From the NCBI GenBank assembly GCA_040954595.2, contig CM082587.2, forward strand, positions 8,995,403 to 9,059,402: 64,000 nucleotides of DNA, given 5' to 3'. Position numbers and translations under genes: made by a program. Numbering within the stretch: the first letter of the stretch is position 1; every line of letters starts with the position of its first letter. Origin of the DNA: Balanoglossus misakiensis (taxonomy: Eukaryota; Animalia; Hemichordata). The notes under the pieces were generated by a model that was not told where the DNA came from, did not search any database, and worked only from the letters and a program-made list of their open reading frames with translations. This document shows positions 2,556 to 45,494 of this stretch, piece after piece.

Positions 2556-2883
2556 CATGTCATTGCATAGCATCTGCCCTGAGGGCAACACTATATCTGA
2601 GCTGCCCTCAGGGCAGACATACATTTCATTTGTACGTACATGTCATTGCATAGCATCTGCCCTGAGGGCAACACTATATCTGAGCTGCCCTCAGGGCAGA
2701 CATTCATTTCATATGTACGTACATGTCATTGCATAGCATCTGCCCTGAGGGCAACACTATATCTGAGCTGCCCTCAGGGCAGACATTCATTTCATATGTA
2801 CGTACATGTCATTGCATAGTATCTGCCCTGAGGGCAACACTATATCTTAGCTGCCCTCAGGGCAGACATTCATTTCATATGTA
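2556..2883. repeat. 83-bp tandem array, left part (~4 units)
   Basis: Unit ACATGTCATTGCATAGCATCTGCCCTGAGGGCAACACTATATCTGAGCTGCCCTCAGGGCAGACATTCATTTCATATGTACGT, e.g. starting at 2721 and 2804. Confidence 0.95.
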
Positions 2884-3448: not shown

Positions 3449-3450
3449 AT

Positions 3451-3469
3451 TGGTGGCAGCGGTGGGATT
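3451..3469 (+). promoter_or_regulatory. Primer binding site complementary to tRNA-Leu 3' end
   Basis: TGGTGGCAGCGGTGGGATT, 2 nt after the LTR, is the reverse complement of the metazoan tRNA-Leu 3' end AATCCCACCGCTGCCA-CCA. Confidence 0.88.
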
Positions 3470-3557
3470 TTACGTCAGAGACTGTAGTACGAGAGCACAA
3501 GTTGAGCGACCAACGAAATAAAACTGAAATCGAGAACTTAGCTCCCCTTCGAAAATT

Positions 3558-9205: not shown

Positions 9206-9865
9206 CCGCAGAGGATACGACGGGTATCACGGGAGAATCGCACGCTCCCCAGAGATTGGCATCTCTGCCCAGTGTAGCCAGGAACAAGAGTGCGGGAGGA
9301 AGGACGACGGAAGTGAAGTGCGGGAAAAGGAATTATTTAATAAATCAGAAGGCCGAGATAGATAGAGATGGTGATGTATCTTAGCCTACGACTACGACTA
9401 CGACTACGATGAAGCGAGAAGTCGCACGATGCAGCGAGAATGCCGTCGAGCGATATACCTGATATATTAGAATTTAGATAGGAGCCGGCCGATAGTATCA
9501 TATGCCGTATGTACCGGCGACGATATGCTGTCTTCAAAAATTATTTCGACTCTCCAGAAGGTAAGCACGTCGAATTTTGTGCTTTCTACATGAATTCACC
9601 ATTGGCGAAAACTTCTCTTTTTCTGTTTGGATTGAGGATCATCGGCACTCCGCTGGCCGTGAAAAAGCGTCCAATCAGTGCACGACTTGCGTGGATTTCT
9701 TAGACGACCAACGGCAATCCTCCGTTCCGTCACGGTTAATTTTAGGGGGGTTGGACCAAGCTTGGTTCGCTACGTTGAGAACAGTATAAATAGGGCAACA
9801 ATGAACCGGGAACGTCGCTCTTCTCACCCGGTCCGATCAGCGCAGAAACCACTAAACTACAAGAG

Positions 9866-10534
9866 ATGAACTCCTTCAGGCGAGATCAGGCAGGGAGACG
9901 AATTTGTATTAGGTGTGGATGCGTATTCGAACACTCGTTCGAGTACAACGAACACCCGTGCGTCGCCAACCGAAACACCGGCAGCGTAGCTACCAGTACC
10001 GTGTCCGTCGCCGAGGCAGATCCAGCCCCACCCGCAGATTCCACACGGCGCCGACCGTCAACACCCCAACCCATCCGTCATGGTGATGTATTCGCCCCAC
10101 TCGATCTCAATCGGGTGGAGAGAGTGGAGGACTCTCACACCCACCGCATATACTCCCATGGAGCAATCAAGGCGGAGACCAATACCAAGCGGGTCTACTA
10201 TCTGCTGAATTCGACCACAGCATCAACGACAACGTCCGGTCCACCTGTGGAGCCGGGGACCGTTCTGCAGCTGCCGGCGGCAGCGACGCCGACCGTCTCC
10301 TCCTGCGCCCGTACAGTCGTCCTTCAGCAAAGGACCGACAAGCCACCTGCCAACACCCCGGGGACCCAGACCAAGAAGAGAAGGAGGGGAGCCCCATCAG
10401 CAAAGAAGGTAACTACCAGCCAGGCCAGAACCAGCACCGCCGGTCGACCCAGACTACAGCTATTAGAGCTGAGCCCAGAAGATGAAGAGAATTTGAATCT
10501 GCCGCCGCGGACGCCGGGGAGAGACGACGAGTAA
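9866..10534 (+). CDS. Additional retrotransposon ORF3 (222 aa), unknown function
   Basis: ATG-initiated ORF between pol and the PPT; N-terminal CIRC-x9-NEHPC, Pro/Thr-rich middle, basic KKRRR; no transmembrane segment. Confidence 0.55.
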   Translation: MNSFRRDQAGRRICIRCGCVFEHSFEYNEHPCVANRNTGSVATSTVSVAEADPAPPADSTRRRPSTPQPIRHGDVFAPLDLNRVERVEDSHTHRIYSHGAIKAETNTKRVYYLLNSTTASTTTSGPPVEPGTVLQLPAAATPTVSSCARTVVLQQRTDKPPANTPGTQTKKRRRGAPSAKKVTTSQARTSTAGRPRLQLLELSPEDEENLNLPPRTPGRDDE

Positions 10535-10674
10535 CATTTTTGTATTGAACTCTTTTTCTTGAACATTTTCTGCATTTTTCTCATTGTGAAGCTGTACGGG
10601 GTGGGGGTCCCTTCCCTTAGAAATATTTTTTGCGATTCAACTTTTTCTTGTACAATAGTCGGAACTTTATTGTC

Positions 10675-10688
10675 TTAGAGGGGGGTAA
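10675..10688 (+). promoter_or_regulatory. Polypurine tract
   Basis: TTAGAGGGGGGTAA directly before the TG of the 3' LTR. Confidence 0.85.
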
Positions 10689-11233
10689 TGTAGAGGTTTA
10701 ACGAGGTCCATTTTACATTTCTGAATGCCTTTGCGGTTTTTGTAATTACTCAGCAGGCGCGGCACACGCGCCAAAACCGATTAGCCTGTTAGTACGCACG
10801 TTCAGTTTTCATTCAATGTTTGCCTTTGGTTGTCTAGCAACGACGATTTCGAGCGACAGCTGTCAATCATTTATTTAGCTACTTTTCTTGGCTTGAAGCC
10901 GACATGATATGTAGATTTTAGGTGCTTTCTCCGACGTCCGATATGCAAATTAGCTTTTCTGATTTTGAATCCGACCCGAGGGTATATAAGTAGCGATTCT
11001 CTTTAAAACGGGGTCGCTCAAGGGGTTTTTCTTATCGAGGCCACACCAGCAACAGCAAAGAAGGTACAGCTCTTCATTTTTACGCAGTATTGTTGATCAT
11101 TTTTCGTGTTCAGTTAATAAATACGCCACGTTGGCTTCTACACTTTATTATTTTGTCCTTGTGCGCTCTGTCACTCGGGTGTAAGGTCGTTACCCTTACT
11201 GATCACCTGACCAGTCTCAACGTAATAATAACG
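10689..11233 (+). repeat. 3' LTR, missing terminal 20 bp
   Basis: Matches 2884-3428 at offset 7805, then runs directly into the 83-bp array. Confidence 0.92.
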
Positions 11234-11775
11234 TACATGTCATTGCATAGCATCTGCCCTGAGGGCAACACTATATCTGAGCTGCCCTCAGGGCAGACAT
11301 TCATTTCATATGTACGTACATGTCATTGCATAGTATCTGCCCTGAGGGCAACACTATATCTTAGCTGCCCTCAGGGCAGACATTCATTTCATATGTACGT
11401 ACATGTCATTGCATAGCATCTGCCCTGAGGGCAACACTATATCTGAGCTGCCCTCAGGGCAGACATTCATTTCATATGTACGTACATGTCATTGCATAGT
11501 ATCTGCCCTGAGGGCAACACTATATCTTAGCTGCCCTCAGGGCAGACATTCATTTCATATGTACGTACATGTCATTGCATAGCATCTGCCCTGAGGGCAA
11601 CACTATATCTGAGCTGCCCTCAGGGCAGACATTCATTTCATATGTACGTACATGTCATTGCATAGTATCTGCCCTGAGGGCAACACTATATCTGAGCTGC
11701 CCTCAGGGCAGACATACATTTCATATGTATATATACATGTCATTGCATAGCATCTGCCCTGAGGGCAACACTATA
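11234..11775. repeat. 83-bp tandem array, right part (~6.5 units)
   Basis: Same unit as 2556-2883. Confidence 0.95.
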
Positions 11776-12781
11776 TCTGAGTTGCCCTCAGGGCAGATTA
11801 CTAGTATTTCCCGCCTGCCAAATATGCTAATTTTTACCCCAGAGGTCTCATATTCAAAACCAAATAGCCTAGCTTGCCGTTTATAAGTTATAACCTCTTA
11901 ATATTGCTACGATCAGAGCAGATTGATATATATACACATGGAGGTATTATCGGCTATTCACTATGCAACGAATTTCTAAAGAAGTTGTAATTTTTCTGTC
12001 ATGTTTAATATATATGTCTCGTGCATGCATCATGAGGGCCTGGTCAGCTGCGAACCATTAGACATTACTAACAAAATAACATCGTTTGCAAATTTAATTG
12101 CCCATGCAACTCTGCTAATGTAGTCAGTACGAACGTGTTGATATATTATGTATTTTCAACATGTCTTTCGGGAATTTAACTTACCTTCAACAACGGTAGG
12201 ATCCCACACCGAGGTGTAATCTGCAGCATGCAGGACACTGGCAGCCAGGACTTGGCACTCGCCGCATGGGTTCTTACGCGGGACTATTTTCTGTGACGTC
12301 ATTGAATGTTGTGTACCCATTTGCTGCTGCCCTGAGGGCAGCGCTGCCCTCAGGTCATTTTCCAGTTGCAACTTCTACCGTCTGCGTCGGACCATGGCTG
12401 AAGCCATCGAGGCCGGAGGAAAGGGAAGAAATTGTAGAGAATGAAAGGACAGAGCATTAAAGTGAAAGACAAGAAATTATAGTGACTAAAAGGACAGAGA
12501 GCACAAAACACTGGACTGAAAGATAAGAAATTGCAATGACTGAACAGCCAGAACATTGAACAGAAACAAATAGGCCTACACATTTGTTTGTAATGGATAA
12601 AACATTGAACTGAAACATGATTTTTTTTTGGTACACGTTTTTTTTTATTTCGCCCGCCCGCCCTGCCTGACTATTCCTTTGGAGATGAGAAACAAATAAA
12701 AAAAAGGGTCACCCTAAGCTGGTGCACCGATTAACTGTGAACAACAGAAGTGTATGAACGAACCAAAGAGGGCGTCTCTGG

Positions 12782-14485: not shown

Positions 14486-15036
14486 GTCATATATTGCCAG
14501 TATCTAAGCCATGTCATTTAGAGTCCACATAGCTATAGCCAAACTCGGGAGTGGTTGGACTATGGACCTGCTCACATTCAGTGGATTGGTTGTATTTTTC
14601 CCAACAGACAAGGTATAAGCTGAGGCCTGCCAAAAAGTTTGGTCCACGGTTGCGTCAACAAATATAAACAATGAGAAAATTATACTACCCAATAATGTTA
14701 AGTAGAGCTACCATAATTAGGAAAGTGTTAATTACTGATACTGTGGATTGTAACTATTTGGTTTGATATTTCTAATGACAAAATATTTAATTAGCCCTCA
14801 GTCGCATTATGGTCAGGTAACAGTTCAAAAAGTTAATCAATGATGTGGTCCCATGTGTGTATCATTGATAAAATCATATGACTTTTTCATCCAAATTTGA
14901 ACTTTCGGTTTTGCTCAAGCTTCAGGTCAATCACCAATAATACTAAATGTATAATCATATGTCTGTACATTCTTTTTACAGGTGTAGTAGATGTTATTTG
15001 AGCTGTAGTATATCACTCTGATGAATCCAAGTTAAA

Positions 15037-18000
15037 ATGGCATCTTTGCAAGCAGACGACTGTCAAAGAACACATACCAGTACAATGCCATACTTTGATC
15101 CCTTCAATTTGTATCTTATCAAACTGGCAGAAGACATAACTGAAGGTGTGTAGAACTTTGTTCATTTTGCTTTCAGAATTCAGGGTGGAATTCAGTGATG
15201 GGTTTGTTTGTTCTCCTTCCTATGGATAATGATCCAGGAGACATTGTGATTCCTACATCAGTGTATGACGGCAATTTCTCATGGCTACCGGTAGATCCCT
15301 AAGTTAACTCACAAATGTCTCAATTAAATTCACTCAATATTTCAAGCTGCACAAGATTGTAAATTTGATCCCACATATCAATGCATTATATGCATGCAGG
15401 TCCCATCAGTGTGTTACACTGTACATTTTGAAATTGTTAAAGCAGAATTACCAACTGTGACAACTTCAAAAAGTCTCATTTGAACTTTTGAACAAGACTC
15501 AGAACAGAGATAGCAAGTTTATTCTCTTCTTCTCTTTTTCTTACAGATGGCCTGAGAAAGTTGGTAGAAACAGTAGCTGCTTTAATGAACCCTCCAATAC
15601 CTAAAAGTGTAAGGGAAGAAATTTTGAAAAGCAATCGTCCGTACAGTTTGTTCGAAGTATTGTGTAACTATGGACATTTATCAAGGGACAAACCTAAGAC
15701 ACTTATTCAGCTGCTGACAATTACCAGACTTAACCTGTTAGCGAAGCATGTAGAAGTTCGATATAAGAAAGGATTTGACAAAGACTATCCATATGACAAA
15801 GTGACAACAGAAGCAGAGTCCAAGACTCCAATATCCACCATAGAATCTTATGGTAAGGACTTGCAGCATTTTACAATACAAGTGTGCATTTGTATTTAAA
15901 TACCCTAAGGGACCGTTCAGTTTTTACGGCCTGGGGGGGGGGGGATGTTACTTTTCTGGTAAGTTACCAATTCTAGCAACTATTGTATTGACTTGTCGTT
16001 TTAATTTGTTCATAGATTTTTTATTGCAATGATATACTATTATATACTTCAATAATACTTTAAGAAATTTATAATTGAGGTGTGAGGAGCCTCATTACCT
16101 TTATTGCATACAGTGTACATAGGATCAGGACGGCAAATGTTTTTGGCGTGGGGGGGGGGGGTCATCATATTTTTGGGTCTGTCAAAGGGGTAGGGGGTCA
16201 TCATTTTTTGGTCAGGGTGAAGGGGGGGTCGACCTGATTTTGAAAACCGATGACACAAACTTGCCGGCCCCCCCCCCCTGCCCTAAAAACTGAACGGTCC
16301 CTAATCACCCTTAATGTTCAACCAGAATTAAATCTGGTCAAACCTGTTTATAGAGGCCAATCAAGGCTTTCTTGGCCTTTAAGGAAGGTGATCTTTATAG
16401 ACAGATCAATTAACGCACATGTTAATTGCTCAGGGACAAAGTACAAAGTGGCCACTATATAGAGGTGGCCAATATCACAAGTTTCTGTGTGATTTTGAAA
16501 AAAGAAGTGATGTAGGCAGTCTATATCTTTAGCTTTGTCAAAGTGACTGAAACACTGAAATGAAAACTTAATTTTAAAAGGAAATAGTGGTCAAAATAAT
16601 TTTGAGAAGTCAAACACTTGGATCGTGCCTGTGGTAATTGAAATATATTTTTAAACGAGTACCACACACACACACACACACAATTAATTCACCCATCTGG
16701 GTTATCTTTCACATACTTCAGGTTTTTCATATGTCGGTGATGTTACTGCTAGCAGTGCAGTTAGTTCAGCTGCAACACAGATAGAGATGACGACAATGAC
16801 GAAAGATCCAGAAGGTGAAACCACAAGTGTACAACACCACATAGACAGACATGCACAGTATCCCTTGACATCAAGACGACAGTTACCATCACCTAGGCAA
16901 CAAACTGTTTTAGTAGGAAAGGACACTAATGAGAAAGGTAAAAAATTTTTACCAATCAATGATAACCAATCAGTGATTCCCAGGTGCAAGTATTGACAGC
17001 TACATGTTTTGTAATATATGGAGAATTATCTGCATCACCAGTGTCAGATGTGAATTTGCATGAAAGGTAAGATTTTTTCAAACAATCAATGATACTGCTC
17101 AGTAGGATAAAAATACTCTTTTGAGAGAAAAATAGAATTTAATCATGATTACATGTAATTTTTTAGCAAAGTAATCTTGACCAATTCATTCAAGGGCACT
17201 TAAAGCCCCAGTATTTCTCGTGTGCATCCATTTTTCATCATCGAAAAAAGCCCGTTTTTCCAGTACATCCATCATGGAATACTATATAATGAAGATGTAA
17301 GAAAGGTTTGGGCAATTGTAGCTACATGCAAGCCGAAAATATCGCCCGTAACACTTGAAATGATGCGCGGGTTTGTTTACAATGGAAATGTTGTACATGT
17401 CGATCAGCAAACGTGCCACTTTGACATTTTGATGGTCAGACCATTTTCGGATTTGATCTGGTTCCATCGACTGATTTCTCCCATAAAGTTATCTTCCAAA
17501 AATTTCGCCGAATTAGTGCGCATTTCTTCGCTGAGTCGCTTGATTTGGGGCGACCAAACCTCTTCCGCATAGATTCACATTTGAGTGCGCATGCGCACTA
17601 GTCACGTGTGTCAACACTCACGTGACTTTCTGTCCGGACAGAAAGTCATTCTTCACTCGTTATATTGTAAATTGTATGAGTTTATGAGCAGAGCTGGGGA
17701 TGATGACTGTTCGATTCAGTATCAATTATCATCTACTTTTAGAAATTATAGATGCCGTTTCAAACAAAATTTTGCCCCTACGAGAAATACTGTGGCTTTA
17801 ATGACTGTACTTTTCAGAACAAACTGTTTTTGTTTCAGAAGAGACACCAACAATTAAGTGATGAAACTCATAAATCAAAGTTGATACAACAAAAAAGACC
17901 TTCGACGCCAAATAAGTTATGTTTCCTTCATGCAGTGTTGCAGTGTACTCTTTCATGAATTGATTACTACAGTTATATTTATTTTCACAGAATTAAACCT

Positions 18001-21000
18001 TCCCATACACCATAGGTTCTAGGAGTTATATTATATCAGAGTACAGCATGACAACTTCATTGTCATGATTAGATGAGAATGTGTTTAATTTACGCAGCCT
18101 AGTTAGGGCACTGTCTTACCGGGTATTGGGGAGGGCACTATTTAGATATCAGGCAATTTTGGGGTGAGATATAGGGAATGTATATCGATTTGGATACATT
18201 CAATCTTTTGAACAGTACGATTTGCGAAAATGTATCATTTTTACTTCTGTCTTCATTGTATGCATGCTGTATAACTCAAGCAAATATATCATCATAGATT
18301 TTCTATGGGGCTATATTCTCTCAGAAATTTTATAGATAGCACTTTTATTGAATTATGTCGTTCCTTATGTGTAGTTGTCATCTTTACAAATGAATATGTT
18401 GTTACAGGGTGATGATGGAGAAAAGTTTAGGTTATTGCAGACAGCATATTCCTTTACCTTTGAAACTTTTCCAGAAAGCGTCTCATTAGAAATTCAGTAC
18501 GGGCTTGATTAATAGATTAAGGAAACATTTCTTCATGTTTCTTTAATTTATTAATAAAGCAAGGACTATGTCATTGACAATGACTTTTTCCAATCTGGTG
18601 ACATCCAAACAAAAAGTAACAAAAAACTACACAGCTCAACCAAAATTAAAATAAAATATTGTTTGTGTGAGCACAGCTAGGCTAGACAATCAAACTTATG
18701 TGATTCTTCAGGGTGCAGTGATCAACTCTTGATAGTGTATTGAGTTTGACTATCCAGTCTCCACCATAAATACCTTTGATTTGGCTGTAGAATAATCTCA
18801 CTAGTTGTATCTCTCTTTCCATAGTTGCAGGAGATGCAATACAACCAAGCAAAGGGAGCAGCACTGAAAAACAGTTAACAGAAGAGAAACCCATTCAAAC
18901 TGAACTGTCTGGGAGGGATCAGGAAGAAATGAAAGTGCTGCAAGAAAGGCTGAGAGAAAAAGAGGAGGAAAAGGAACATCTGGAGAAAACACTCAAAGAT
19001 GTCAGAAAAGATTATGAAGTACTACTAGCAAAGAGAGATACTGGCCAAGAGAAACCCATTCAAACTGATCTGTCTGAGAGGGATCTGAACAAAATGAAAT
19101 TTGACACGAAATTGCTGCAAGGAAGGCTGGACGAAGAAAAGAAAAAAGAGAAAACACTCGAAGAAGTCGAAAAAAAGAAGGAAATAGAAAGTTTGAAGAA
19201 AGAGATTGACCAGCTTAAAGAACGGAATATGCTAAAACAGAAGGCGATCAACAAGTTCCTTGAATTAGACGAGAGCACAAGAACCGAAGGACCTCATCAT
19301 CAAGGTGTGTTTTGAGCTCATTTTTCATAGTTTTGCCTGACAACCACACTTTGAGCGACTCATTGTTTATCAAGCTGAATTGTTACGTTTTACTGAGAAC
19401 ACATGGCATTGATTATGTCACTGTTTGGTGTGTCATGCATGCATGCTGTTTGAGTGTCAGTCAACAAATCTGCACATAGATTGTCAGGACACATACCGGT
19501 AGACTGCCAGGAAACTGCAAATTTAGGAATAAATTATTTCCTGCAAAGTTCACCAGATATGAGTAGATTTTATGCATTTTAGATTATGTATCAAATAGTA
19601 TTCAGGCTAGAATGACGAACAGAAATATAAAAGGTCAGTGCAATTATCCGGAGAAAATACCATTCTTCAATTTCAAGATTGACTAATATGTTACAAACAT
19701 ATATATTAATTTATTGTCAACATTACTCTCAGACAAATAACTTCCCTAAAATATCATTCTGCATTTCAGATATCAAAGACCAAAGATCACTTCTGCTCAT
19801 CGCTGCTAATGAGGTAGGCATGATGATTAAAATAATTAACTTAGGTTTTGTTCAATACGTACTGTTCAAAATTGCATTTGTCATAATTACATCTCAAACT
19901 TGATAAATTATAATTAAAGCGACAAAGTCTCTCTCTTGCTGCCCTTTTCCCATTAATTATGTTTGATACAAGACACCCTTTGTATTAATATTCATATGGA
20001 TTAATAGTGAATTAACATTAGACCACACACAACTGTTCCTTTATAAAATTATACAATTGTATACAATTGTGCTGGTCTCTGGAACTTCGTTTTTGGTCGC
20101 AAGGATGCTTTCTAGTTCTACCGGTATGACAGAATTTGTTTAACATTGAACTTTCAAAAGTGGAGATTTCCAGCCCCAATTTCTGATTTGTAATGATTGT
20201 TGTTTTTCCCTAAAGGAAAGATGTTCCTACAAATTACCATGTGGATTTTCGCTCGAGGTCCCACCAGAATGTGTGGAAGAAGACACAACATTGTTGGTCA
20301 CATGTAACAAGAACGTCACCAAGGTCCCTCTTGCAGACTTTGTATGGTATCAGTCAGATGTCCTTGATTTTGAGGCAGATCACATTACACTGAAGAAACC
20401 AGTCTACCTTGTGAGGAAGTGTTTAAATGGTCAGCCGTTTACGAGAGAACAGATCATCCTGACAAGTAAAAATAGTGAAACGTGGGAAGAGTTGAAAACT
20501 GTTGAAGTAAGTACCCACTAGTAGCTCACCCATGTTTTCGAGGGACACCCCTCCCCCCCCCCCACATCATGACGAATATGTTTCAGAGCCCCCTGTTATT
20601 GGCCTGGTACATCATGGGTCTGCACAGTGAAATTGTACTACAGTTATCAGTGTCATTGCAATATTACTAACCTTCCATTTGGCAAAACAAAACACAGTCT
20701 CTGAGACAATGTTTGTTTTACTACCAGAGCAATAAATACCACCATCAATCAAAAGTGCTAATCATTTGTTCATAAAGATTCTGACCATACACTAAAGTGA
20801 AAATGATATTGTTAATGTTGATTTTTATTCAGGAAGACAATCATATCAAGGTAGAAGTTCGCCATTTATCACGTTTCTTGGCAATTTCAAGACCTTATAC
20901 AGACACATTTTATATCAGCAAAGAAGGTGGAAAATTTACCTCAAGAAAAGACGAACGGATTAGCATCGTAGTTCCAGAAGATGCCATAGAAGATGAAAAG

Positions 21001-21021
21001 GCTGTAATATTAGAGGTAAAT

Positions 21022-21065
<44 letters not shown>

Positions 21066-23268
21066 TATCATCATCACAACCACCATCACAACCACCAACA
21101 TTTACCCATACCTGTTATTACCCCACATAGAGATTAACATGACAAGAGATTAAGGTGGAACTGCATCAGCTGCTAGATTGCTTGTTTGATTGATTGATTA
21201 ATTTTGCCAAAAACTTTGACAGGCGGCAACCACAAGCAGTTAAACTCTCAGACAGGAGATAATTCAGCCGCAGGTATACATGTACCGGTATGTACTGGTA
21301 TAGAGACAACAGGTTTACTGTTTGTATTGAAGGTCCATGACTGTAGCTACAACACAGTTGATAGTGTCTTCCCAACTGGTGGAGAATCTCTCGATGTGTC
21401 CTTCGCATCCATAGTGTACATCAATCGAGGCCAGAGGGAAAGCATAAAGTTCAACAAGCCTGTAAAACTAACCATCCCACTGCCACCAGACATCCCAGGT
21501 GTTGTGTCTGATGATACAGAACTCTGCATACTAAAAGATGAAGCTGGTAATTATGAATGGAAAGATGTTACCAAGGATTGTTTTTTTACTGTACAACACG
21601 ATGTGGTGGAATTTCACACTCAGATACTGAGTGGGTAGGTTGAATTTTTCTTGCGTAAAAATACACCAGCATAGACTTCAGTGGAAATGCAATGTAATGA
21701 CTGCAGTTATGTCGATATTGCTCTGAAGAAATCTTCCTTTGATTGGATCCGCAAGTAATGGTGATAACACACCTCTTCCGTAATCTATGATTCTAAATGT
21801 GGGGTCAGCGGTAGAACATCTACCGGTAATTGCATTTCACCATTTTCATTCCTTGAAAGTGTCTGGAATTATTTTCAGATATTCTTTGGGAAGATACATC
21901 AAAGAAGTCATGCCACGAATTTGTTATATGCTATCAACCATCACAAACTTCAAGAAGACTTGGAGTCAGATTGTTAAGATTAAACAATACACTGATGAAA
22001 GAACAACACACAGTCCTGATATTGAGATGAAAAGTGGAGATGTTGTCAAAAATTCTGTACCCACAAAGGGGGCTTTTGATGAGCAACCAAAAGTTGAGCT
22101 CCAATTCTCAATGCCAAATGTAAGAACCTACCTAAACTTATTAGCATGTTAATAATTGAAATGAAAATCGGTTATCATTTTTGTATCACAAAGAGATGAC
22201 TGTGCATGCATGTATGAAATGTGTTAATTGCAGAAAGCAATTTATTTTGTTTGTACGATACAAGTCAAATTACTGGTGCTAGAACTTCAAGGGTTTGGGT
22301 TAAATGTATCATTTTCAATGACTGCATAATTGAAAAGAAAAAAAATTATGAGTTTGAGTATGGAGAGAGTGCCAGATCCAATATCTTTGGTTTCACCTGG
22401 AACTGAATGTGTCTAGGCTACAAATTGGCTGTCAGTGGGTAATTTTCCAGGTTGGTCAACAAAGGGGTCACTGTGATGAGTACCTCAAAGTTTTTAAGCA
22501 CAAAATGATGAGGAAAATTGAAACATATACTGCATAATATGTTCTATTTTATGGTGGTGGTGTGTTTCTGTTTAATATTAAATATGAGATGTTTCTTTTT
22601 CTCATGTAGGGAAGTCAAGTGCAGCAAATTGCTGACAGTTCTTCAAATGGAGGTGAGTGTCAAAAATAATGCAATGCCAAATTGTTAACACTTAAAATAA
22701 AACATATCTCTTATTACTGAGGTTGATATAATTGGCATTTTTCACACAGTATACGTCAAACAGCCAAAAAGAAATCTTAAAAGTTAAATACATTTGAGTA
22801 GTTCTTAATTGACTCAGTGAGGCATTGTGTTGATTTGTGGCCATCTTAGGGATGACTTATAGTCACATTTCCTAACATTGTGATGTCAGACGTAATTTAC
22901 ATATTTCCCATGTTTGTACAATATAACATGAACACAGTAACATTTTCATTACAGCTTCAAAACTTTCTCCACTGAATGTCCTTTTCACGGAGATTGAAGA
23001 TCATTTTAACAGAGATAATGAGCGAAGCCTTAGGAGCCTCTTGCGAGGTTCGCTAATACCCAAAGGAGTTTTACAGAAATTGAAATCTCCCTCGAAAATA
23101 TTTCTGCATTTGCTAGAAGAAGGTCATCTCAGAGATGTTGATTTATCACTTCTGAAGGAATTGCTGCAGCGCGTGCATCTGACAACATTAGTCTCATTTG
23201 TGGAGGAGTGTGAAAAAAACTGCAATCAGAAAAACAATGTGGGAAAAAAAGACCATTTACAGAGGTAG
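15037..23268 (+). CDS. Gene A: DED - linker - coiled coil - ZU5 - ZU5 - UPA-like remnant - DED protein (PIDD1-like core), ~842 aa
   Basis: Exons 15037-15145, 15547-15852, 16722-16937, 18825-19304, 19770-19813, 20216-20506, 20833-21015, 21333-21634, 21879-22119, 22610-22652, 22955-23268: all GT-AG, 2529 nt, open frame. DED-like FNLYLIKLAEDITEDGL...LFEVL..YGHLSRDKP..LIQLL; ZU5-like LEVPPECV, VRHLSRFLAISRP, FNKPVKLTIPLP, WKDVT; C-terminal DED-like IFLHLLEEGHL...DLSLLKELLQRV. Probable non-coding exon ending ~13629. Confidence 0.8.
15909..16301. mobile_element. Tourist/Harbinger-type MITE in gene A intron
   Basis: TIRs GGGACCGTTCAGTTTTTA / TAAAAACTGAACGGTCCC; TAA TSD; the paralogous gene B intron (~26401-26436) has the empty site with one TAA. 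Confidence 0.9.
17204..17797. mobile_element. Kolobok-type non-autonomous element
   Basis: TIRs AGCCCCAGTATTTCTCGT / ACGAGAAATACTGTGGCT (17/18 match); TTAA on both sides. Confidence 0.75.
17825..17945 (+). pseudogene. Decayed copy of gene B exon 29355-29447
   Basis: GAAACTCATAAATCAAAGTTGATACAAC matches the gene B exon; the donor reads ATAAGT instead of GTAAGT and the acceptor is lost. Confidence 0.65.
19914..20050. mobile_element. Partial copy (one arm) of the MITE at 36244-36590
   Basis: TTAAAGCGACAAAGTCTCTCTCTTGCTGCCC...GATACAAGACACC matches the left arm at 36240. Confidence 0.75.
21022..21076. repeat. (ATC)n microsatellite in an intron
   Basis: Direct reading; follows the donor at 21016. 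Confidence 0.95.
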
Positions 23269-25193: not shown

Positions 25194-28100
25194 ATGGCAG
25201 ATTTTGATTGGTTTAAGGAGTACCTTATAAGGCTGGCAGATGACATCGGAAATGGTGAGTGTACATTTAATATTTGAATGTTTTTATCCCTGAGTGAGTG
25301 GTGCTCTAGGACACTCATGAATGGATGTCTCTACCCATCAGTGTGCATGTCCTGGTTGTTCAGGGAATGTCTATAATGATGCAGTTGTTGCATCCACAGT
25401 CATCTCACATACAACCAGTGTTTCATCTAGACGGGGGGATGGGGGGATTGACATGTTGGCACCCCCTAGCAATTTGTCAGGGGGGGGGGACCAGTGCCCC
25501 TTAAAATGATGCCATTCACATGTTGGAGATTATCACAGTCCCCCCTTGCCAGAGTGGAATCCCCCTCAAATATTCTGGCAAAGGGGGACATATCCCCCCT
25601 GCTGATACCATCCCGAATGAAACACTGAACTAGTATCAGTAATAAAACTAACATTTTCCCCTGTATTCTTGTAACAATCTTCTGTTGGAGCACCCAATGA
25701 AACACTGTACAACAAGGCTGATTTATTCAAACTTGGCACAAAGACAATACATGATCATCCCATTTTCACTTTGAAATTTAAGACTAGTGATCTCCTGTAC
25801 TTTTAAAATTTTTCTCAAAAGATTTCTTTCCAGAAAAATGTGTACAGTACTATAACTTTTTCTTTTTTCCGTTAAAGATGACCTGATTAAATTGGTGGAT
25901 GGACTGGGTGCCTTAAAGAAACCTTCAATACCAACAGTTGTGAGGGAAGAAATTCTGAGAGAGAAACGTGCATATGTTTTGTTTGATATGTTGTTAAAAT
26001 ATGGACATTTATCAAGAGACAAACCTGGAACACTTATTCAGCTGTTGAAAAATGCCAGACTTTACATGTTAGCAAGGCATGTAGAAGTTCGATATGAGAA
26101 AGGATTTGACAAAGACTATCCATATGATGAAGTGACAATTGAGTCTAGGATGAAAGTTGATAGCCCTCAAGAGATAAATGACAGAAGTGGAGAAAGTTTG
26201 CCAACATTTCCAACTGAGAGGACCTCAGCAGGACCACAGTTACCATCTCCCTCACAGCATCCAAGTCCCACAACAGAAGTGCAGTCAATGACATCAACTC
26301 GTCCCAAGATTCCAGCAGTGACAGCCACTCATTCCCAGACTCAATACACAACAGAATCTTACGGTAAGCACTTCCAGCAAGTATATACTAGTACCTATGT
26401 ATTTAATACCGTAATCACCCAAAATGTTCAACCAGAAAATCCAGTCAAACCTGTTCATAGCCGCTAATCACAGCTTTCCTAAACTGGCCTTATGGCTAGG
26501 TGATCTTTATAGACAGATCAATTAATTCACCCATCCATGTTTATTTTCCACATACTTCAGGTATTTCAGATGTCGGTGATGTTGCTGCTAGCAGTGCAGT
26601 TAGTTCAGCTGCAACACAGATAGAGATGACGACAATGATGAAAGATCCAGAAGGTGAAACCACAAGTGTACAACACCACATAGACAGACATGATTTAAAT
26701 CGTGCACTGTATCCCTTGGTGACAAGACTGCAGTCACTATCACCTAGGCAACAACCTGATTCAGTAGGGAAGGACACTAATGAGAAAGGTAACAATTTTT
26801 TTTACAAAATATACTGGAGCACTTCAACCAATCAATGATAGCCATTCAGTATGTGATTTCCAGGTGCAAGTATTGGCAGCTGCATGTACCGGCACCATTA
26901 TATTCAAAATCATCATAAGTGATATGGAGAATTGTCTAGCGCATCACCAATGTCTTCGTTGAGTCAGTTGCATGTCAATTGACGTAGAGGGTTCCCTACC
27001 CAGGGTGAAATTGACAGAAAGTTCTCATAGGTGTCCTGTATCTTTGACAAAAATGCAGATCCTATTTTAGTAACTGCTGAATGAATCATCTTGGTATTTG
27101 CATCAAAATTGCATTTTGGACTTTTGATGGGAATTTGTGGAAATGAAATTCTCATTACCAAATCTATGCATTATTTGAAAAAAAAGAAAATGATCAAATA
27201 TTTTGCTTAAATTCTGTAACAACATCTGCTTCTGTCATATTGCTGTGTTAGTGTGCGATTTCTTCACAAATAGGTTTGGATTGCAAATCAATAAACACAT
27301 CTTGTGTGTTCATTGTCCAGATAAAGACCAGCTCAAAACGACCATCATATTCCTGGCTGAAAAGTGGAATCGTGTGAAGGACACTGTATCTGCCCTCAAC
27401 TGTCAACTTGCCAGCAGTGTAGCTGAAGACAGACAACGTAAAACATGCTGTGTTGTTTTGGAGGCAAGTGACGAAGAAAGGAAAGATGCAGCTGATTGTG
27501 GAGTTGAGTTGATACTTCCAAGAATAGAAGAAGATGTGATTGAGAGATACAAGAACGACACACCGAAGCCAGATTGGTTTCTTTCTCCAGATACATTCTT
27601 CACAACCCTCACAGAGTTACAAAATGTGGAATTCATTGTGGAACACGTCAAGCCTTCAGCAAAGCTCCTGGTTGCAAATGTTTTGAGGAAACGATATTTC
27701 AAAGATGCTAACATTATCCTCATCAATCACACCATCCCATCAGTTGAAGTACAAGACAAACACATCAAATTTGCTGAGGAGGCATCTGCAGTTTTCTCTG
27801 TTGGACCAGATGTCTTTGAACATTACAAGAAACTCTACCAAACAACCAAAGTTCCTGTAAAACATGAATTGTATCTTCCAAGACCAGAGAAAGAATTCTT
27901 TGATGTTAATGTGGATCAAATAGAAAAAACAAGTGACTTGAAACAAATCCTGACTGTGATAACTGATGAAGATGTGAAATCCCCACGATATAAAACACTG
28001 GCAGCTGAAGTTGGAAAAACAGCTGAAGGATTCAAATTTATGTGCATGACGGTTCCATTGTGGTGTGTCCCTACTCCTTCAGAAGCTGATCTTGAAACTA

Positions 28101-31100
28101 CAAATACTTTTCTTACAGGCAACTTAAATTGTCTGCACATAAAACCAAACACTTATCCCTCATACAGCTCTCAAGATGAGATTTACAGAGATTTACGCCA
28201 GAGTAATGTCTGTATTATACCACCTGATGAGCCATTCAGGATGGAGGGATTACGATCCATTGCTGCAGGACTACCTGTGTTAGTTCCGGAAAGAACTGCC
28301 TTAGCAGCTTTTATGAACACATACCTAGGCCAAGAAGCAAAGTATTTCCTGTATAACCCTTTAGTTGATGGGGAATTATCAGAACAGATCAATAAGATGT
28401 TGAACACAACACATGCAATACCCACAGCAACACGTTTGAAGAATATGTATCTCAGTCACACAGAGATTACTGACAGTCATGAAAAGTTCAGAGCTTGTTT
28501 CAAAGAAGTCCAGAGTACACAGCCTGCACAAAGTAAGTATTTCCTTTTCGTGGCCAGCCTTCCCAGTCACTCTCAACCAAACCAGAAAACCTGGGTATTA
28601 GTAGAGTTTAAGGTTTAACTTTTCACTTGACTTTTATCAAAGATGTTGGCACCCTGTGTGATTAAGTTAACGACCATACTTCTGGTGGTATGTATCCAAT
28701 TATATCTTTATGATAACCTCACATTGATAATGTTGACAGCTGACTTACAGTCCAGACTTTAATTTAAATTTGTCAACAATAACTATGTTGAGTGTAAATT
28801 TGCATAAGCTTGTGTTGGGCATTACATCATGATTGGAGTAGAATAAAAAACTGCAGATGATACAAAAATAGTGTAAAATAACCACAAGATACGGTACTAA
28901 CAGAACTGAAGTGGTAGAAATGGGTGCATATCAGATTTCATATGTTTGATTGATAAGTTGAAAACAACTAAAGAAAAGATATAACTACAGAAACAAATGT
29001 TTTCATGAACTAAAGAAATAAACAACTAGTGTGTTTTTGCTAGTAATTTGTACATCTTGATATTATAATTAATTGAGTTGAAGCGATTTAATATAGTGCA
29101 AATGTCAGTCACATTTTTTTTCTGTTTGCTAGTTACAAGTCCCCAATCTGCTACCCATAGTGTAAGGAGTCCTTCAACTGATGAAGGTGTAGGAACTTTA
29201 GAAAATGCCTGTTCTCCTCAGCCACAAAAAAATGGTAAGTAGAGTTGGGATTACTTAGTTTAATATGCATAACGGTAGTTTCTGAAGTGAAAAAAATACA
29301 CACATATTTTCACTGAACTGCTCTTATTTAAAAATTTAAACTTTTCTCCTATAGGCGGTCCAGAATCTGCTGTTGTTTCAGATGAGAAACCAACAAGTGA
29401 AACTCACAAATCAAAGTTGATTCAACGGAAAAGGCCTTTAATGCCAAGTAAGTTGTGTTTTCTTCAGTGTTGCAGTATGCTTCATCATGATTTCACCACA
29501 AAATCTAGTTTTACAAAATTCATTTCCTTTTACATATTATCCAATGATCCTAAACACCATAGGTTCTAGGGCAGTCACCCCCTGGACATTTCATACCCAC
29601 AAGAAGCTTACTCTGATCCTATCCCATATGTCTATGCTGATTATCGGAAATGTCCAGTAGGTGTGTTCAGTGGGTAACCAAATTATATTCCGTCAACTGC
29701 TCTAAACACACTTAAACTGAGCATTAAAATTAACATCAACTGACTCTTCATGTTTCGTTTTACTATCATCTGCATTGATATTTCATTGCTATTTCAAGTA
29801 GGATAAATATATAATAATCTTTTAGGAGAAAAACCTAAATTAATGCTGAACTGTTTCACTGTTTATTCAACCCATAGCTGTTCATAGTGAAGTAAATCTA
29901 GAGTTTGAAGAAAAAAAGATGAAGATGGAGATGGAGATGGAAAAGATGAGAGGGGAAACAGAATGCAAGAAAATGGAGCTTGAAACAGAACAGAAAAGGA
30001 TGGAGCTTGAAAGAGAGAAAATGGAACTTGACAGGGAGAAAATGAAGCAGAATCAGATGTTCATAAATCAAATAACGGCAATTTATGAATTTCAGAACAA
30101 GAAAATCATGGATAGAGATGACCCAGATGTAATGGAACAGTTAGCTAAGGCCTATGAGGAATATAAAGCAAGATTAGATGGAGTTGGACTTGGCTCTTTG
30201 TGGTTCTTACTGAGTTTCCTTTCAGAGGAAGACATTGATTATTTCTGGCAGAAATACAAAGCTGGAGAAGTTGATGAAATGCTGAGTGGTATCCTAATAA
30301 CATCCGAGATGAGATCCCTAGCAGAGAAAGCTGGACGTGTTGTTAGAATCAGAATGAAGATAGATGAAAAGGAGTTTGAGATTGTCAAAGACATACTTCA
30401 CAGTGAGTATTATACGGTAGTTTTCACAACTATAATTATTATTGAATATCTTGAAGCACCAAATTAGAACTGAATCGTTTGTAGCAGCAAATGAACTTGA
30501 ATTGAATTCCACACAAGAATTTAATGGAGAAGGTCTCCAACTTTTGGTTATTTTATTTTGATAGGTATGTTGTTCTACTGATTGAAACATACATCACTCA
30601 ATTCACAACCATTACATGGATATTACACATGAACATTTCCATCATTTAATTTTTAGTCAATATCAGAATTATATTGCTGACATATTCTTTCTCAAGTCAT
30701 ATCCATGTACAGGGTGCTGATGGAGTTGTAACAACTGGTCATTTAGTTTGTGTTAGGGAGAAGAATAAAAAATAGCCCATCAAGATGAAAAAATGTTAAA
30801 AAATTAGCAATGTTATCCCTTTAATGCATCCATGTTTATTTTCCACATACTTCAGGTATTTCAGATGTCGGTGATGTTGCTGCTAGCAGTGCAGTTAGTT
30901 CAGCTGCAACACAGACAGAGATGACGACAATGATGAAAGATCCAGAAGGTGAAACCACAAGTGTACAACACCACATAGACAGACATGCACAGTATCCCTT
31001 GACGACAAGACTGCAGTCACTATCACCTAGGCAACAAACTGATTCAGTAGGGAAGGACACTAATGAGAAAGGTAAGATTTTTTAAAATAAAAATATACTG

Positions 31101-34100
31101 GAGCAGTTAAGGTACACATGTTTCCAGCAAAATAAAAGTGAACTGAAAATTGATGAAGTGATTGTTCTGTAGCTCTTGTACATGCACTGGTATGGAACAT
31201 ATATTCTGTTAAGAACAGTAAATGATTAATTATGTGATAGTGACGCATTTTTACCAACTTGTAAATATACGGTAGGGTAGGTATAAGGTTGGAAGGCAGG
31301 CCGTTGATTGAAAACAGTAGAAGAAAAAATTATTTCAGAAACAAAACAATTGCCAATGTTCTGTTGAAAGAAAACTTTAAATGACTGATAAAATCAGAAG
31401 CAGCAACCATGTTTTAAAAACTGGGCTGATCCTGGCTAGGCTGCGTGAACTACAGGCTGGGCAGTGAAACACTTATGTGATTCCTCAGGGTGCATTGATT
31501 AACTCCTGATAATGTATTGAGTTTGACTATCCAGTCTCCACCATAAATAACATTGATTTGGTTGTAGAATAATCTCACTAGTTGTATCTCTCTTATCATA
31601 GTTGCAGAAGATGCAATACAACCAAGCAAAGAGAGCAGCCCTGAGAAACAGTTAACAGAAGATAAACCCATTCAAACTGAACTGTCTGGGAGGGATCTCA
31701 ACAGAATGAAATTGGAGATGAAAGTGCTGCAAGGAAGGCTGAGTGAAAAAGAGGAAAAGGAACATCTGGAGAAAACACTCAAAGAAGTCAGAGAAGATTA
31801 TGAAGTACTACTAGCAAAGAGAGTTACTGGCAAAGATACACCCATTCAAACTGAACTGTCTGGGAGGGATCTGGAAGAAATGAAAATCGTGATGGCAGTA
31901 CTGCAAGAAAGGCTGAAAGAAAAAGAGGTAGAATTAAAGAAATGGACAGAGAAAAAACTCAAAGTTACTGGCAAAGAGAAACCCATTCAAACTGAACTGT
32001 CTGGGAGGGATCTGGAAGAAATAAAAATCGAGATGGGAAAAATGAAATTTGACATGAAAGTGCTGCAAGGAAGGCTGAGTGAAAAAGAGGAGGAAAAGGA
32101 ACATCTGGAGAAAATGCTCAAAGAAGTCAGAAAAGATTATGAAGTACTACTAGCAAAGAGAGTTACTGGCAAAGAGAAACCCATTCAACCTGAACTGTCT
32201 GGGAGGGATATGGAAGAAATGAAAGTGCTGCAAGGAAGGCTGAGTGAAAAAGAGGAGGAAAATGAACATCTGGAGAAAACACTCAAAGAAGTCAGAAAAG
32301 ATTATGAAGTACTACTAGCAAAGAGAGTTACTGGCAAAGAGAAACCCATTCAAACTGAACTGTCTGGGAGGGATCTGGAAGGAATGAAATTGGAGATGAA
32401 AGTGCTGCAAGGAAGGCTGGACGAAGAAAAGGAATGTACAGAGAAAATACTCCAAGAGAAGGAAGTACTAGAAAAGAAATTAACTGACAAACTAATCCAA
32501 GCCAAACAAGGTGATTCTAAGATGGACAGTTTGCAGAAAGAGAAGGTCCTTGAATTAGACGAGAGCACAAGAACCCAAGGACCTCATCATCAAGGTGTGT
32601 TTTCTGCTCATATGTCATAGGTTTGCATCGATAGCCACACTTGTGTGACAAATTGTTTATCAAGCTAAGTTGTAATTTTCAATCCGATCATTCTGAGCAG
32701 ATCTTTTCTCACACTCCTGGCCGCTGGGAGTGTGGGATAGAGAGTGTGGGATCAAATCAGTGTTTACCTTTCCTATTCCGTACATAAGGTATTTCAGATG
32801 TCGGTGATGTTGCTGCTAGCAGTGCAGTTAGTTCAGTTGCAACACAGACAGAGATGACGTCAATGATGAAAGATCCAGAAGGTGAAACCACAAGTGTACA
32901 ACACCACATAGACAGACATGCACAGTATCCCTTGACATCAAGACTGCAGTCACCATCACCTAAGCAACAAACTGATTCAGCTGTTGAGGACACTACAACC
33001 GCAGGTAAACTTGTTTTTAAAATCATCATTTATTCAAATTTTTCCACCAGTAATATTTTCCATCCTACAACTCATTAAAATTAGTTTAAGTTGAGTTTTA
33101 AACGTTGGAATGATTTATTATGTGGATGGTTACAAATAATGACTAGAATAGGATTAACTAATGTGTGAATACATCTCTATGGACAAGTAATCTGATATGG
33201 ACTGAGCCCTAATATTCATATATGATAAAAGATTAAGATTACCGTAGGCAGGAAATTCAGAGAAGACCAATTTCAGTCAAACATGTTTCATGACTTGTCT
33301 ATCATTCATTCTAGTATGTAGTCGTGGTAAAAGATCTACTGAAACTGACGAAAATTATTCAAGTCCACCCAAGAGAAAAAATGCATCATTTACACTCATG
33401 ATATGTATTAAAAGTATAAACTTACAGATTTATTCAACAAGATGGTCTGCAAGTTTTTCGATTGTTTGATCACACCTGAATCTGTTTAATTTTGATAGAT
33501 TCACAAGAGGACAAGCTTCAGGATGCTTTTGCTAACCAGCCAAGCACTTCTGATAATACACCAACCATGAATATGCCAACCATGCATATGCCAACCATGA
33601 AAACTACACCAGGTACGTTTCTCACCATGAATTGGTTGAACCCTTTCACCCCAATGGTTTGGTCCAAAACTATTGTTTTCCATGGTGAAATTGGTCCTTC
33701 ATAAAATGAAGTGGGTGAGAAAATTAGATTTTCTGGTCTCAATCACAAGAAGACATCTGAGCCCATCCATCATTTTGCTTTCAGTGCTTGAAAATTTTTA
33801 ATCAGAAATCACTTCAATGATGTTCAAAGATGTTGTGAGGCCTAATGCTCAAAAAATCACAATTGATGAAATGCTAGCTGGTGCACCATGATACTTTGGT
33901 TCTTGTGATCAGTATTTACAGAAATATTCAATAATAATAATTTCAGATGTTGTCATCAAGTGCCAACAAAAGTTGCAAGAATACTACAAGAGAAAGTCCT
34001 ACATTCTCCCCTTACCATGGTGGGATGGAACAGAGAGATTGAAACTCGAAGATATCTACGTACAGTTAGAATTACAAACCAAAGATGGACATTTGAGAGA

Positions 34101-35703
34101 TTTTGCAATACAAGATTTATTCACTGGAACTAATGATCGTGAAAATCCAAGACGAATTTTAATAGAAGGTGATCCAGGGTATGGTAAGTCAACTCTTTGT
34201 AAAGAGTTGGCATATGATTGGGCAAACGGCAATGTAAACTTTCTCAATTGTTTCAAACTTCTTTTTCATTTTGAATTGAAAGATCTACATGAATACCATT
34301 CAGGAAATAGTCAGAAACAAAGTCTTAAAGATGCAGTTTTTGATTGCTTGTTACAAAATGTTGAAGGAGCAGATGAGATATGGAGTTTTGTTGAAAGCAA
34401 TCAATCACAAGTGTGTTTTGTCTTTGATGGACTTGATAAAGTCAGTACTGATGATCTCCCAGTGTACTTTAAGCAAATGATCCGAGAAAAACGACGACTG
34501 CTGCCTGACTGCCCAGTAATTGTAACGTCTCGGAAAATCAGGGACAAGAACTCCAAACAGATGTACGAGAGACAATTATTGATTAAGGGTTTTGATACAG
34601 AGAATGCAGAAGCTTTCATTAAAAAGCATATAAATGCAATGTCTTCAATGGATGAAACTGTAACACCAGAAACAGCTGAGAGTTTTATCAATGAATTGGA
34701 CACATCCATCCACCGCAGCATTTTGTATGGATTTTTGCAGAGTCCTTTGAATACTTTGATGTTATGTGATATTTGGATGGAAACAAAGAAACTACCACAC
34801 ACAATCACAGAACTTTACAAAGAGTTAATTGATTATGTTGTAAAACGATACTGTGAAAAACAAGATAACATTATTGATCCAAATAGTGATGAAATCAGGG
34901 ATGAAATTCTCTACTTAAGTAAACTCTCATATACTGCTTTGAAGTCTGGTAAATATTCTTTCAGTGAGAAAGAAATTTCAGGTCATCCACACTTACAGAA
35001 ATTGGGACTTCTGACAAAAACCTCTCGACCTCCAAGCTATAACTTTTATCATTTCACATTTCAGGAATATTTTGCTTCATTGTACATTTCCCATCTATGC
35101 ACTAGTAACCATAAAGAATTTGAAGATTCTGTTGCATTTTCAGTTATTGGAGATTATTTACGGAGGAATGATGCAATGTTGAAGTTTCTTGGTGGTCACT
35201 TGCGAGACAATGTTGGTGAAGTATTCAAGGTTTGGGAGAGAAAGTCTTTTTCAGTTGAATCCTTTGATGTAAGGCCAATGTTGTATGAAAGTGGTTGTGA
35301 ATCTGAGGAAACAATATTTTATTGTGCGAAGTTTTTACCCGAAGATCTGAGAATAGACCTTAGGGACCGTTCAGTTTTTACGGCCGGGGGGGCCGGCAAA
35401 ATCCAGGGGGGGGGGGGGGGTCACTTAAATTTTGAAGTCCAAAAGGGGGGGGGGTCATCTGGTTTTTTTAAACGTTTAGGGGGGGGGGTCACATACTTTT
35501 GCCACCGAACTTTTGCTTTTGAGTCCACAAAATTGCAGTTTCACGCCCTTTATTTTACAAAATTTTCTAATGTGGGAGGGGGACACCCACCCCCTTCATT
35601 CTCCGCCACATTTCATTTTTTGCTGGTTTGTCTAGTGTACCAGGGCAGAGTACTTGCCACCCCAACCCCACCGATGATAATAGTTAACAAAGTAAACACA
35701 TAA
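25194..35703 (+). CDS. Gene B: NLR-like protein DED - GT-B glycosyltransferase-like - TRADD-N-like - coiled-coil repeats - NACHT, 3'-truncated by a MITE (no LRR)
   Basis: Exons 25194-25254, 25878-26363, 26561-26788, 27321-28532, 29133-29234, 29355-29447, 29878-30402, 30856-31071, 31602-32594, 32789-33004, 33499-33612, 33947-35703: all GT-AG phase 1, open frame. NACHT: Walker A GDPGYGKST, Walker B FVFDGLDK, VIVTSR, FYHFTFQEYFAS. Probable non-coding exon ending ~23958. 35363-35703 is read-through into the MITE. Confidence 0.8.
27321..28532 (+). other. Exon encoding a degenerate GT-B (GT4-like) glycosyltransferase domain of gene B
   Basis: IFLAEKW...VSALNCQLA, ILINHT, AVFSVGP, SNVCIIPPDEPFRMEGLRSIAAGLPVLV resemble GT4-type motifs found in invertebrate NLRs. 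Confidence 0.75.
33947..35362 (+). other. Exon encoding NACHT NTPase plus winged-helix/HD2 region of gene B
   Basis: LEDIYVQLEL, RRILIEGDPGYGKSTLCKELAYDW, DGLD, TSR, IKGF, SPL..LMLC, HFTFQEYFA. Confidence 0.93.
35363..35600. mobile_element. Harbinger-type MITE (left end only) inserted in the NACHT exon
   Basis: TTA then GGGACCGTTCAGTTTTTACGGCC, same as the 15909 TIR, followed by G-runs; right TIR not found; end coordinate approximate. Confidence 0.85.

Positions 35704-45450: not shown

Positions 45451-45494
<44 letters not shown>

Follow-up and report, generated by a model that had tools for sequence, protein, structure and literature searches.

A likely chimeric gene with a ZU5-ZU5 core and two DED-type ends in the acorn worm Balanoglossus misakiensis

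The window analyzed here is a 64-kb stretch of DNA (64,000 nucleotides, nt) from the acorn worm Balanoglossus misakiensis (assembly GCA_040954595.2, contig CM082587.2, positions 8,995,403 to 9,059,402 of the forward strand). All positions are counted from its first letter. Two genes on its forward strand are treated below, gene A (14982 to 23268) and its tandem paralog, gene B (25194..35354). The predicted product of gene A has two ZU5 domains between two ends of the death effector domain (DED) type. On its simplest reading gene A is a chimera of a gene-B-like front half and a ZU5-ZU5-UPA-DED back half, and its product is tentatively taken as a scaffold that mostly does not cleave. A first-pass annotation, made from the letters of the window, had read it as a PIDD1 core in which the LRR and the death domain (DD) are both replaced by DEDs. 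Papers are cited by PubMed Central (PMC) number.

Results

Exon structure of gene A

Joining the coordinates of the 11 exons gives 2529 nt, or 842 amino acids (aa) plus a stop codon, the same open frame and length as in the first-pass annotation. All 10 introns are GT-AG, there is no premature stop, and a stop codon lies in frame 15 nt upstream of the ATG. The locus lies in intron-rich animal DNA of ~36-39% guanine plus cytosine (GC). The encoded domains follow in the order divergent DED, linker, coiled coil, ZU5, ZU5, UPA remnant, DED.

Exon 1 (14982..15145, coding 15037-15145) contains 5' untranslated region from the acceptor at 14982, the ATG at 15037 and helix 1 of the N-terminal DED, and is a paralog of gene B exon 1. 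Exon 2 (15547..15852) encodes helices 2-6 of this divergent DED, identified by a weak Pfam DED match and a fold model. Exon 3 (16722..16937) is a Ser/Thr-rich low-complexity linker with 92-94% nt identity to its three gene B copies, and exon 4 (18825..19304), a paralog of gene B exon 9, is a charged coiled-coil repeat (aa 236-360, 54% charged residues). Exon 5 (19770..19813) supplies strand 1 of ZU5-A and opens the ZU5-ZU5-UPA block. Exon 6 (20216..20506) encodes ZU5-A and was matched in tblastn searches with relatives at expect values (E) down to 3e-22. Exon 7 (20833..21015) holds the end of ZU5-A with cleavage position 1 (nt 20863-20871) and the start of ZU5-B, exon 8 (21333..21634) holds ZU5-B with cleavage position 2 (nt 21624-21632), and exon 9 (21879..22119) completes ZU5-B and adds what is left of the UPA, 48 residues (aa 676-723). 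The short linker of exon 10 (22610..22652) closes the block in phase 1, and exon 11 (22955..23268) encodes the C-terminal DED and the stop.

Exons 2, 3 and 4, and the block of exons 5-10, are phase 1-1 at their edges. Gene A was likely assembled by phase-1 exon shuffling, to judge from its exon borders. The Pfam scan returned no LRR family in any gene A exon scanned and no NACHT domain, which the neighboring gene B has. A small element with terminal inverted repeats (15905-16304) occupies most of intron 2.

The ZU5 core and its acorn-worm relatives

A HMMER search of 1.84 billion representative proteins gave 12 matches (P0001 to P0012). Eight are acorn-worm proteins, all of them automatic predictions: seven from Ptychodera flava (XP_070548985, XP_070536463, XP_070531668, XP_070571011, XP_070569423, XP_070571184 and XP_070545313) and one from Glandiceps talaboti (XP_077980467). 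The remaining four (P0006, P0009, P0011 and P0012) are repeat-rich adhesin or immunoglobulin-like proteins and were dropped as chance matches. Local blastp of gene A against the eight relatives gave E of 1e-34 to 1e-96, and the ZU5 pairs are 31-51% identical.

These relatives and single exons stood in for the spliced 842-aa protein in folding and remote searches. The best solved match of the P0005 model is the ZU5-ZU5-UPA-DD structure of ankyrin-B (4d8o; Foldseek E 3.5e-27); full-length PIDD1 is absent from the solved structures searched, and the ankyrin match does not assign the family. Exon 8 also matches ankyrin ZU5-B weakly (best E 0.011). Sequence searches of the PDB started from exons 2, 6 and 7 yielded no useful match. 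The exon 8 match, the blastp results and the P0005 model bear out the tandem ZU5 domains of the first-pass annotation.

For P0001, the closest relative, which NCBI automatically names PIDD1-like, the Atlas structure scores are 1704, 1667 and 1445 for PIDD1-type clusters, 1406 and 1375 for ankyrin-type clusters, and 1014 for DTHD1, which has the best template-modeling (TM) score, 0.71. Chordate LRR-ZU5-Death clusters lead by score, although not by TM, with a similar result for P0010. When Atlas clusters are compared by features, those nearest to P0001 are ZU5 proteins of sponges and echinoderms. Pfam returned no UPA or FIIND match for the acorn-worm ZU5 family, and no match to the PIDD-specific family Peptidase_S68, a weak negative since the gene A motif region is split between exons. 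Word-based protein searches returned nothing for exon 8, three proteins for the family alignment and one for P0008, all already known; these searches are nearly blind and do not bound the size of the family.

The ends of the relatives vary. By Pfam, P0003 and P0004 have an LRR in front and a DD behind, P0005 has a DD behind, P0008 an LRR in front and DD-DD behind, P0007 LRR-FN3 in front and a CARD behind, P0010 (XP_070531668) a CARD in front and a DED behind, P0002 a DED behind, and P0001 the ZU5 pair alone. The DED-ending relatives are XP_070536463 and XP_070531668. An N-terminal DED or coiled coil is found in none of the eight. Seven have a full UPA, and XP_070548985 ends at the first UPA strand. 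In a nine-row tree without outgroup, gene A clusters with P0001 and P0002 at 100/99 and P0010 lies outside. The C-terminal DED of gene A is probably inherited, being shared with Ptychodera relatives.

P0003 and P0004 have the full PIDD1 order LRR-ZU5-ZU5-UPA-DD, P0004 with H-F-S at site 2, and are candidate non-vertebrate PIDD1-like genes. P0010 has the order CARD-ZU5-ZU5-UPA-DED, keeps S-F-S at site 2 and has its UPA complete. These features recommend it above gene A as a candidate self-cleaving switch that releases a DED.

The two DED-type ends

The last exon was correctly read as a death fold. Exon 11 scores 45.4 bits with Pfam DED (E 1e-11) against a cut-off of 35.9, and 16 of its 18 PDB sequence matches are caspase-8 or FADD chains. 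The FL motif and RxDL are hallmarks of DEDs (PMC7156525). Alignment to caspase-8 places S766 where caspase-8 has the FL-motif Phe and L-T-T-L (814-817) at the RxDL position. The P0002 DED, unlike that of gene A, retains the FL motif.

At the other end, the Pfam DED match reaches 21 bits (E 3.4e-4), under the cut-off, with helix 1 outside the query, and R-L-N-L at aa 97-100 replaces RxDL. The model of exon 2 (predicted local distance difference test score 81.5) was built from a three-row alignment that included the gene A C-terminal DED. Nine of its top ten fold matches are DED proteins, led by cFLIP, PEA-15 and MC159 (Z 6.5-6.9) and including caspase-8 and FADD; their Z values of 6.0-6.9 fall under 8, the tool's caution line. 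The model aligns to DEDs from helix 2 on, which fits a helix 1 in exon 1. Foldseek with this model returned no match at E 0.001. The N-terminal domain likely has a DED-type fold, judged mainly from the model, and the assignment is not firm. The DEDs annotated at both ends are thus secure by Pfam at the C-terminus; the N-terminal one is below the cut-off, with a fold model closest to DEDs.

Cleavage positions and UPA remnant

PIDD1 is cleaved at His-Phe-Ser after each ZU5 (PMC9162469). In PIDD1, Nup98 and CARD8 the Phe is a buried residue that anchors the site structurally for cleavage, its change to His blocks cleavage in all three, and UNC5b has Leu at the Phe position (PMC3210808). Gene A reads H493-L494-S495 (H-L-S) at site 1 and I641-L642-S643 (I-L-S) at site 2, where the His is also lost. 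The Ser nucleophile is kept at both. In the P0005 model the equivalent residues, T149 and S300, sit at a break between two strands. Among the relatives, Phe at site 1 is found only in P0001 and P0002, the clade-mates of gene A; Phe-Ser at site 2 is kept in six of the eight, the exceptions being these same two, and Phe at site 2 is missing in only three of the nine proteins (gene A, P0001 and P0002). Site 2, whose cutting would free the death-fold fragment, is the more eroded of the two. By its motif, cleavage at site 1 is possible; that it actually occurs we consider doubtful.

The UPA of gene A is 48 residues long, compared with 119 in P0002 and 140 in P0005. The first-pass annotation's shortened UPA-like region is indeed UPA-derived, and the shortening is more precisely an internal loss of about two thirds, by two in-frame deletions. 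The remnant scores 15.9 bits against the UPA profile (best of 1000 shuffles, 9.3). About four of the ten modeled UPA strands are left, so the remnant would probably not fold. The missing piece is not found elsewhere in the window. In CARD8 and NLRP1 the UPA lowers the threshold for death-fold filaments (PMC7794386).

These features bear on the suggestion that gene A redirects ZU5 processing to DED caspases. It would then be a rewired PIDD1-type switch, in which the ZU5 pair cleaves itself and releases the C-terminal DED to recruit and switch on a caspase-8-like protease. Both Ser residues are kept and are placed at the strand kink of the modeled ZU5 domains, site 1 retains its His, PIDD1-type clusters are top by structure score for the closest relative, and caspase-8 and FADD are the best matches of the C-terminal DED. 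The design may work in P0010, with its S-F-S and full UPA. In gene A, however, Leu replaces Phe at both sites, Ile replaces His at site 2, two thirds of the UPA are deleted, and the C-terminal DED has neither the FL phenylalanine nor RxDL. The redirected processing is not supported on these points, and we regard such a switch as unlikely.

Gene B and the probable origin of the front half

Gene B (25194..35354, forward strand) encodes a DED, a linker, a GT4 glycosyltransferase, further linkers, a coiled coil and a NACHT domain. It has 12 exons and 1884 open codons, and all 11 introns are phase 1. The Pfam matches are GT4-conflict (E 6e-25) and NACHT (E 1.5e-24), and a linker exon is present in three copies. 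Exon 7 may resemble TRADD-N; Pfam returned no TRADD-N match. Between gene B and the next gene, near 37100, no LRR exon was recognized, and gene B may be truncated at its NACHT exon. The last exon meets a small transposon at ~35360, where an end related to the inverted-repeat element of gene A intron 2 sits at the break (35358-35400).

By blastn, genes A and B are colinear at 67-91% nt identity over the upstream flank, exon 2, exon 3 with its flanks, gene B exon 6 and the coiled coil. The likeness of the two exons 1 is at the protein level, and exon 2 has 64% aa identity. The counterpart of gene B exon 6, recognized by nucleotide comparison, is a dead remnant in gene A intron 3 (17818..17912, forward strand), which has kept its acceptor, lost its donor GT, gained a 7-nt insertion and would meet a stop after 14 codons if spliced in. 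The similarity stops at ~19383, inside gene A intron 4, and no remnant of the gene B GT4 exon or NACHT is found in gene A. Divergence is mosaic, with a synonymous divergence (dS) of 0.32 in the DED exon and 0.06-0.09 in linker and coil. This suggests repeated duplication or conversion, whichever the direction of copying. On the simplest reading of these comparisons, gene A is a chimera in which a B-like front half became joined in intron 4 to the ZU5-ZU5-UPA-DED back half.

Signals in introns 3 and 4 also allow that the exon model is over-joined. The main transcripts would in that case terminate downstream of exon 3 or exon 4, giving a short decoy made of the DED alone or of DED plus coiled coil, and would seldom if ever contain the ZU5 block. 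A transcript using the retained acceptor of the dead exon would stop after its 14 codons, read-through of the exon 4 donor meets a stop within 11 nt, and AATAAA occurs at 18553, 18650 and 19528, although this hexamer is frequent in DNA of 36% GC. Against such transcripts, exon 5 opens at a phase-1 acceptor without a start codon and needs an upstream exon, it lies only 465 nt past exon 4, and the phases match unadjusted. We give this possibility little credence.

Selection on gene A

Exons 2-3 of genes A and B align over 477 nt without an indel. The aligned non-coding flanks, by contrast, carry 22 indels over 1049 nt, of which 16 break the frame (Poisson P 7e-4). The frame of gene A therefore looks kept. 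Another explanation of the open frame is that it is a leftover, gene A being a young chimera of a fast birth-and-death immune cluster that is drifting to a pseudogene. The destroyed UPA, the eroded motifs, the dead exon and a ratio of nonsynonymous to synonymous divergence (dN/dS) near 1 against gene B all fit such drift, as do the absence of the exact architecture from the eight relatives and the apparent cutting of the neighboring gene B by the small transposon at 35360. All 842 codons and 20 splice sites are nevertheless intact next to flanks with many frame-breaking indels, and both UPA deletions keep the frame to the last DED, which would be expected by chance in 1 of 9 cases if the two were independent. 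Drift to a pseudogene appears improbable.

Other features of the window

The retrotransposon, zinc-finger, sulfotransferase-like and CLCA-like labels in this paragraph were given by eye. Within 1920-12385, a Gypsy-like long terminal repeat retrotransposon has gag-/pol-like frames and direct repeats at 2883 and 10688 that are 300 nt long and identical; it sits in an 83-nt tandem array, itself within an element with 455-nt inverted arms. C2H2 zinc-finger frames lie at 38253-39419 and 45323-47008, and two sulfotransferase-like single-exon frames, inverted and 70% alike, at 40091-42827. At 49060-51322 an element carries a short frame resembling a transposase, together with nearly perfect inverted arms of 306 and 113 nt. 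Next come two inverted blocks of a 31/103-nt composite satellite (52395-55028) and, at 55031-59853, exons of a gene that resembles CLCA, a calcium-activated chloride channel regulator.

Discussion

A proposed two-DED scaffold

We tentatively favor the reading that the gene A product is a mostly non-cleaving two-DED scaffold, adaptor or decoy in the acorn-worm immune network, every functional step of which is deduced from motifs. The source of exons 1-4 would be an ancestor resembling gene B, and that of exons 5-11 a P0002-type gene with the order ZU5-ZU5-UPA-DED. Site 2 (I-L-S) would stay uncut, so that no fragment like PIDD-CC is freed, and site 1 (H-L-S) would be cut poorly or never; if cut, it would give pieces of 57 and 39.5 kDa. 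With a UPA remnant unable to fold, UPA-driven oligomerization would be lost, and the coiled coil would supply multimerization. The N-terminal DED and coiled coil, held in common with gene B, could give entry into complexes of the gene B NACHT family. The C-terminal DED, without the FL phenylalanine, would cap and not seed caspase-8-type chains. Binding DED proteins of its own network, the scaffold would most plausibly damp gene-B-type receptors or DED caspases.

Several observations weigh against this scaffold. The FL and RxDL rules derive from vertebrate DEDs and may not apply to acorn worms. The N-terminal DED scores 6.9 bits on a three-sequence DED profile, and four of 1000 shuffles scored higher. 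Site 1 retains both His and Ser, and the clade-mates P0001 and P0002 read Q-F-S and H-F-C there. The His is of lesser weight, Nup98 being hardly affected by loss of its His alone, and Phe to Leu is not among the mutants described in the accessible part of the same study (PMC3210808). Four gaps in the exon 4 alignment with gene B have lengths not divisible by three; they fall in repeats, and both frames are open. Estimates of dN/dS between genes A and B range over 0.67-1.67, none of them significantly different from 1; this does not separate selection from drift and leaves amino-acid constraint unsupported.

On a further reading, acorn worms would have made of the PIDD1-type ZU5-ZU5-UPA unit a family of shuffled self-cleaving switches for DD, CARD or DED outputs, the gene A clade would have shifted cleavage from the second ZU5 to the first, and gene A would be a UPA-less, cleavable DED-to-DED bridge from a GT4-NACHT receptor to a caspase-8-type pathway. 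We consider this reading quite improbable.

Gene A offers a clear snapshot of probable immune domain shuffling, with the putative chimera next to its likely donor, joins that fall in phase-1 introns and a dead copy of a donor exon still recognizable. Natural variation in the family, which covers the front end (LRR or CARD), the rear end (DD, CARD or DED) and the retention or loss of the cleavage motif and the UPA, could be used to test whether ZU5 self-cleavage and the UPA are needed to license the death fold. For a DED-coupled switch, XP_070531668, with S-F-S and the UPA kept, is the better test case; gene A is one eroded member. PIDD has been reported absent in lophotrochozoans and suggested to be vertebrate-specific (PMC11463336), and the two acorn-worm LRR-ZU5-ZU5-UPA-DD proteins bear on PIDD1-like architectures outside vertebrates.

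Comparison with known systems

The first-pass annotation took PIDD1 as its model. The C-terminal DD of PIDD1 binds RAIDD. Gene A is like PIDD1 in its tandem ZU5, UPA-derived sequence and C-terminal death fold in that order, and in the Ser at both cleavage positions. It differs in having no LRR, a DED instead of a DD, H-L-S and I-L-S for H-F-S, and a UPA that is mostly gone, when set against the LRR-ZU5-ZU5-UPA-DD of PIDD1 (PMC9162469). It is also one of many acorn-worm paralogs, and its kinship with PIDD1 is putative, as judged from structures of its relatives. What stands of the annotated PIDD1-type core is thus a ZU5-ZU5-UPA module for which PIDD1-type clusters are first by Atlas score in the closest relative. 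A PIDD1 with both ends replaced does not fit, since this is a multigene family with freely swapped ends; the C-terminal DED is common to Ptychodera relatives and the N-terminal half probably comes from the neighboring NACHT gene family. The coiled coil, the gene B paralogy, the degenerate cleavage motifs and the internal UPA deletion are features beyond that annotation.

The ankyrin ZZUD module, DTHD1 and UNC5 have the fold in common with gene A, and UNC5b likewise has Leu at the Phe position; unlike ankyrin and UNC5, gene A has no ankyrin repeats or membrane part. The short forms of c-FLIP, PEA-15 and FADD are similar in bearing DEDs without a catalytic domain, and c-FLIP, PEA-15 and FADD are among the N-terminal fold matches. 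The DEDs of gene A, however, are ~630 residues apart and not a packed tandem, and a likeness of function would be conjectural.

Death-fold shuffling among invertebrate immune proteins is established (PMC2575513). In shuffled coral, sea urchin and amphioxus proteins ZU5-ZU5-UPA likewise moves as a unit and is placed next to death folds, TRADD-N and GT4; the coral protein PFX28323.1 has ZU5-ZU5-UPA flanked by Death domains on both sides, Acropora GT4 proteins have ZU5-ZU5 without UPA, and Saccoglossus has DED-GT4 and DED-TRADD-N-coiled-coil-DED proteins (PMC8195603). A pairing of ZU5 with DED appears in no row among 90 of the 96 ZU5 places in file 4 and 30 of the 66 in file 6 of that paper. No description of a two-DED ZU5-ZU5 architecture was found in the literature searched, which left most subscription journals outside. 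The shuffling of ZU5-ZU5-UPA is already published for marine invertebrates and a C-terminal DED on a ZU5 core is already in public predicted proteins; what is new is the exact DED-ZU5-ZU5-DED form, not found in print, on a known kind of shuffled core. Gene A fits best in the acorn-worm ZU5-ZU5-UPA-death-fold family, with its homologous ZU5-ZU5 core over its length, its UPA-derived segment and its C-terminal death fold, and there XP_070531668 is alike in having a death fold (CARD) in front and a DED behind.

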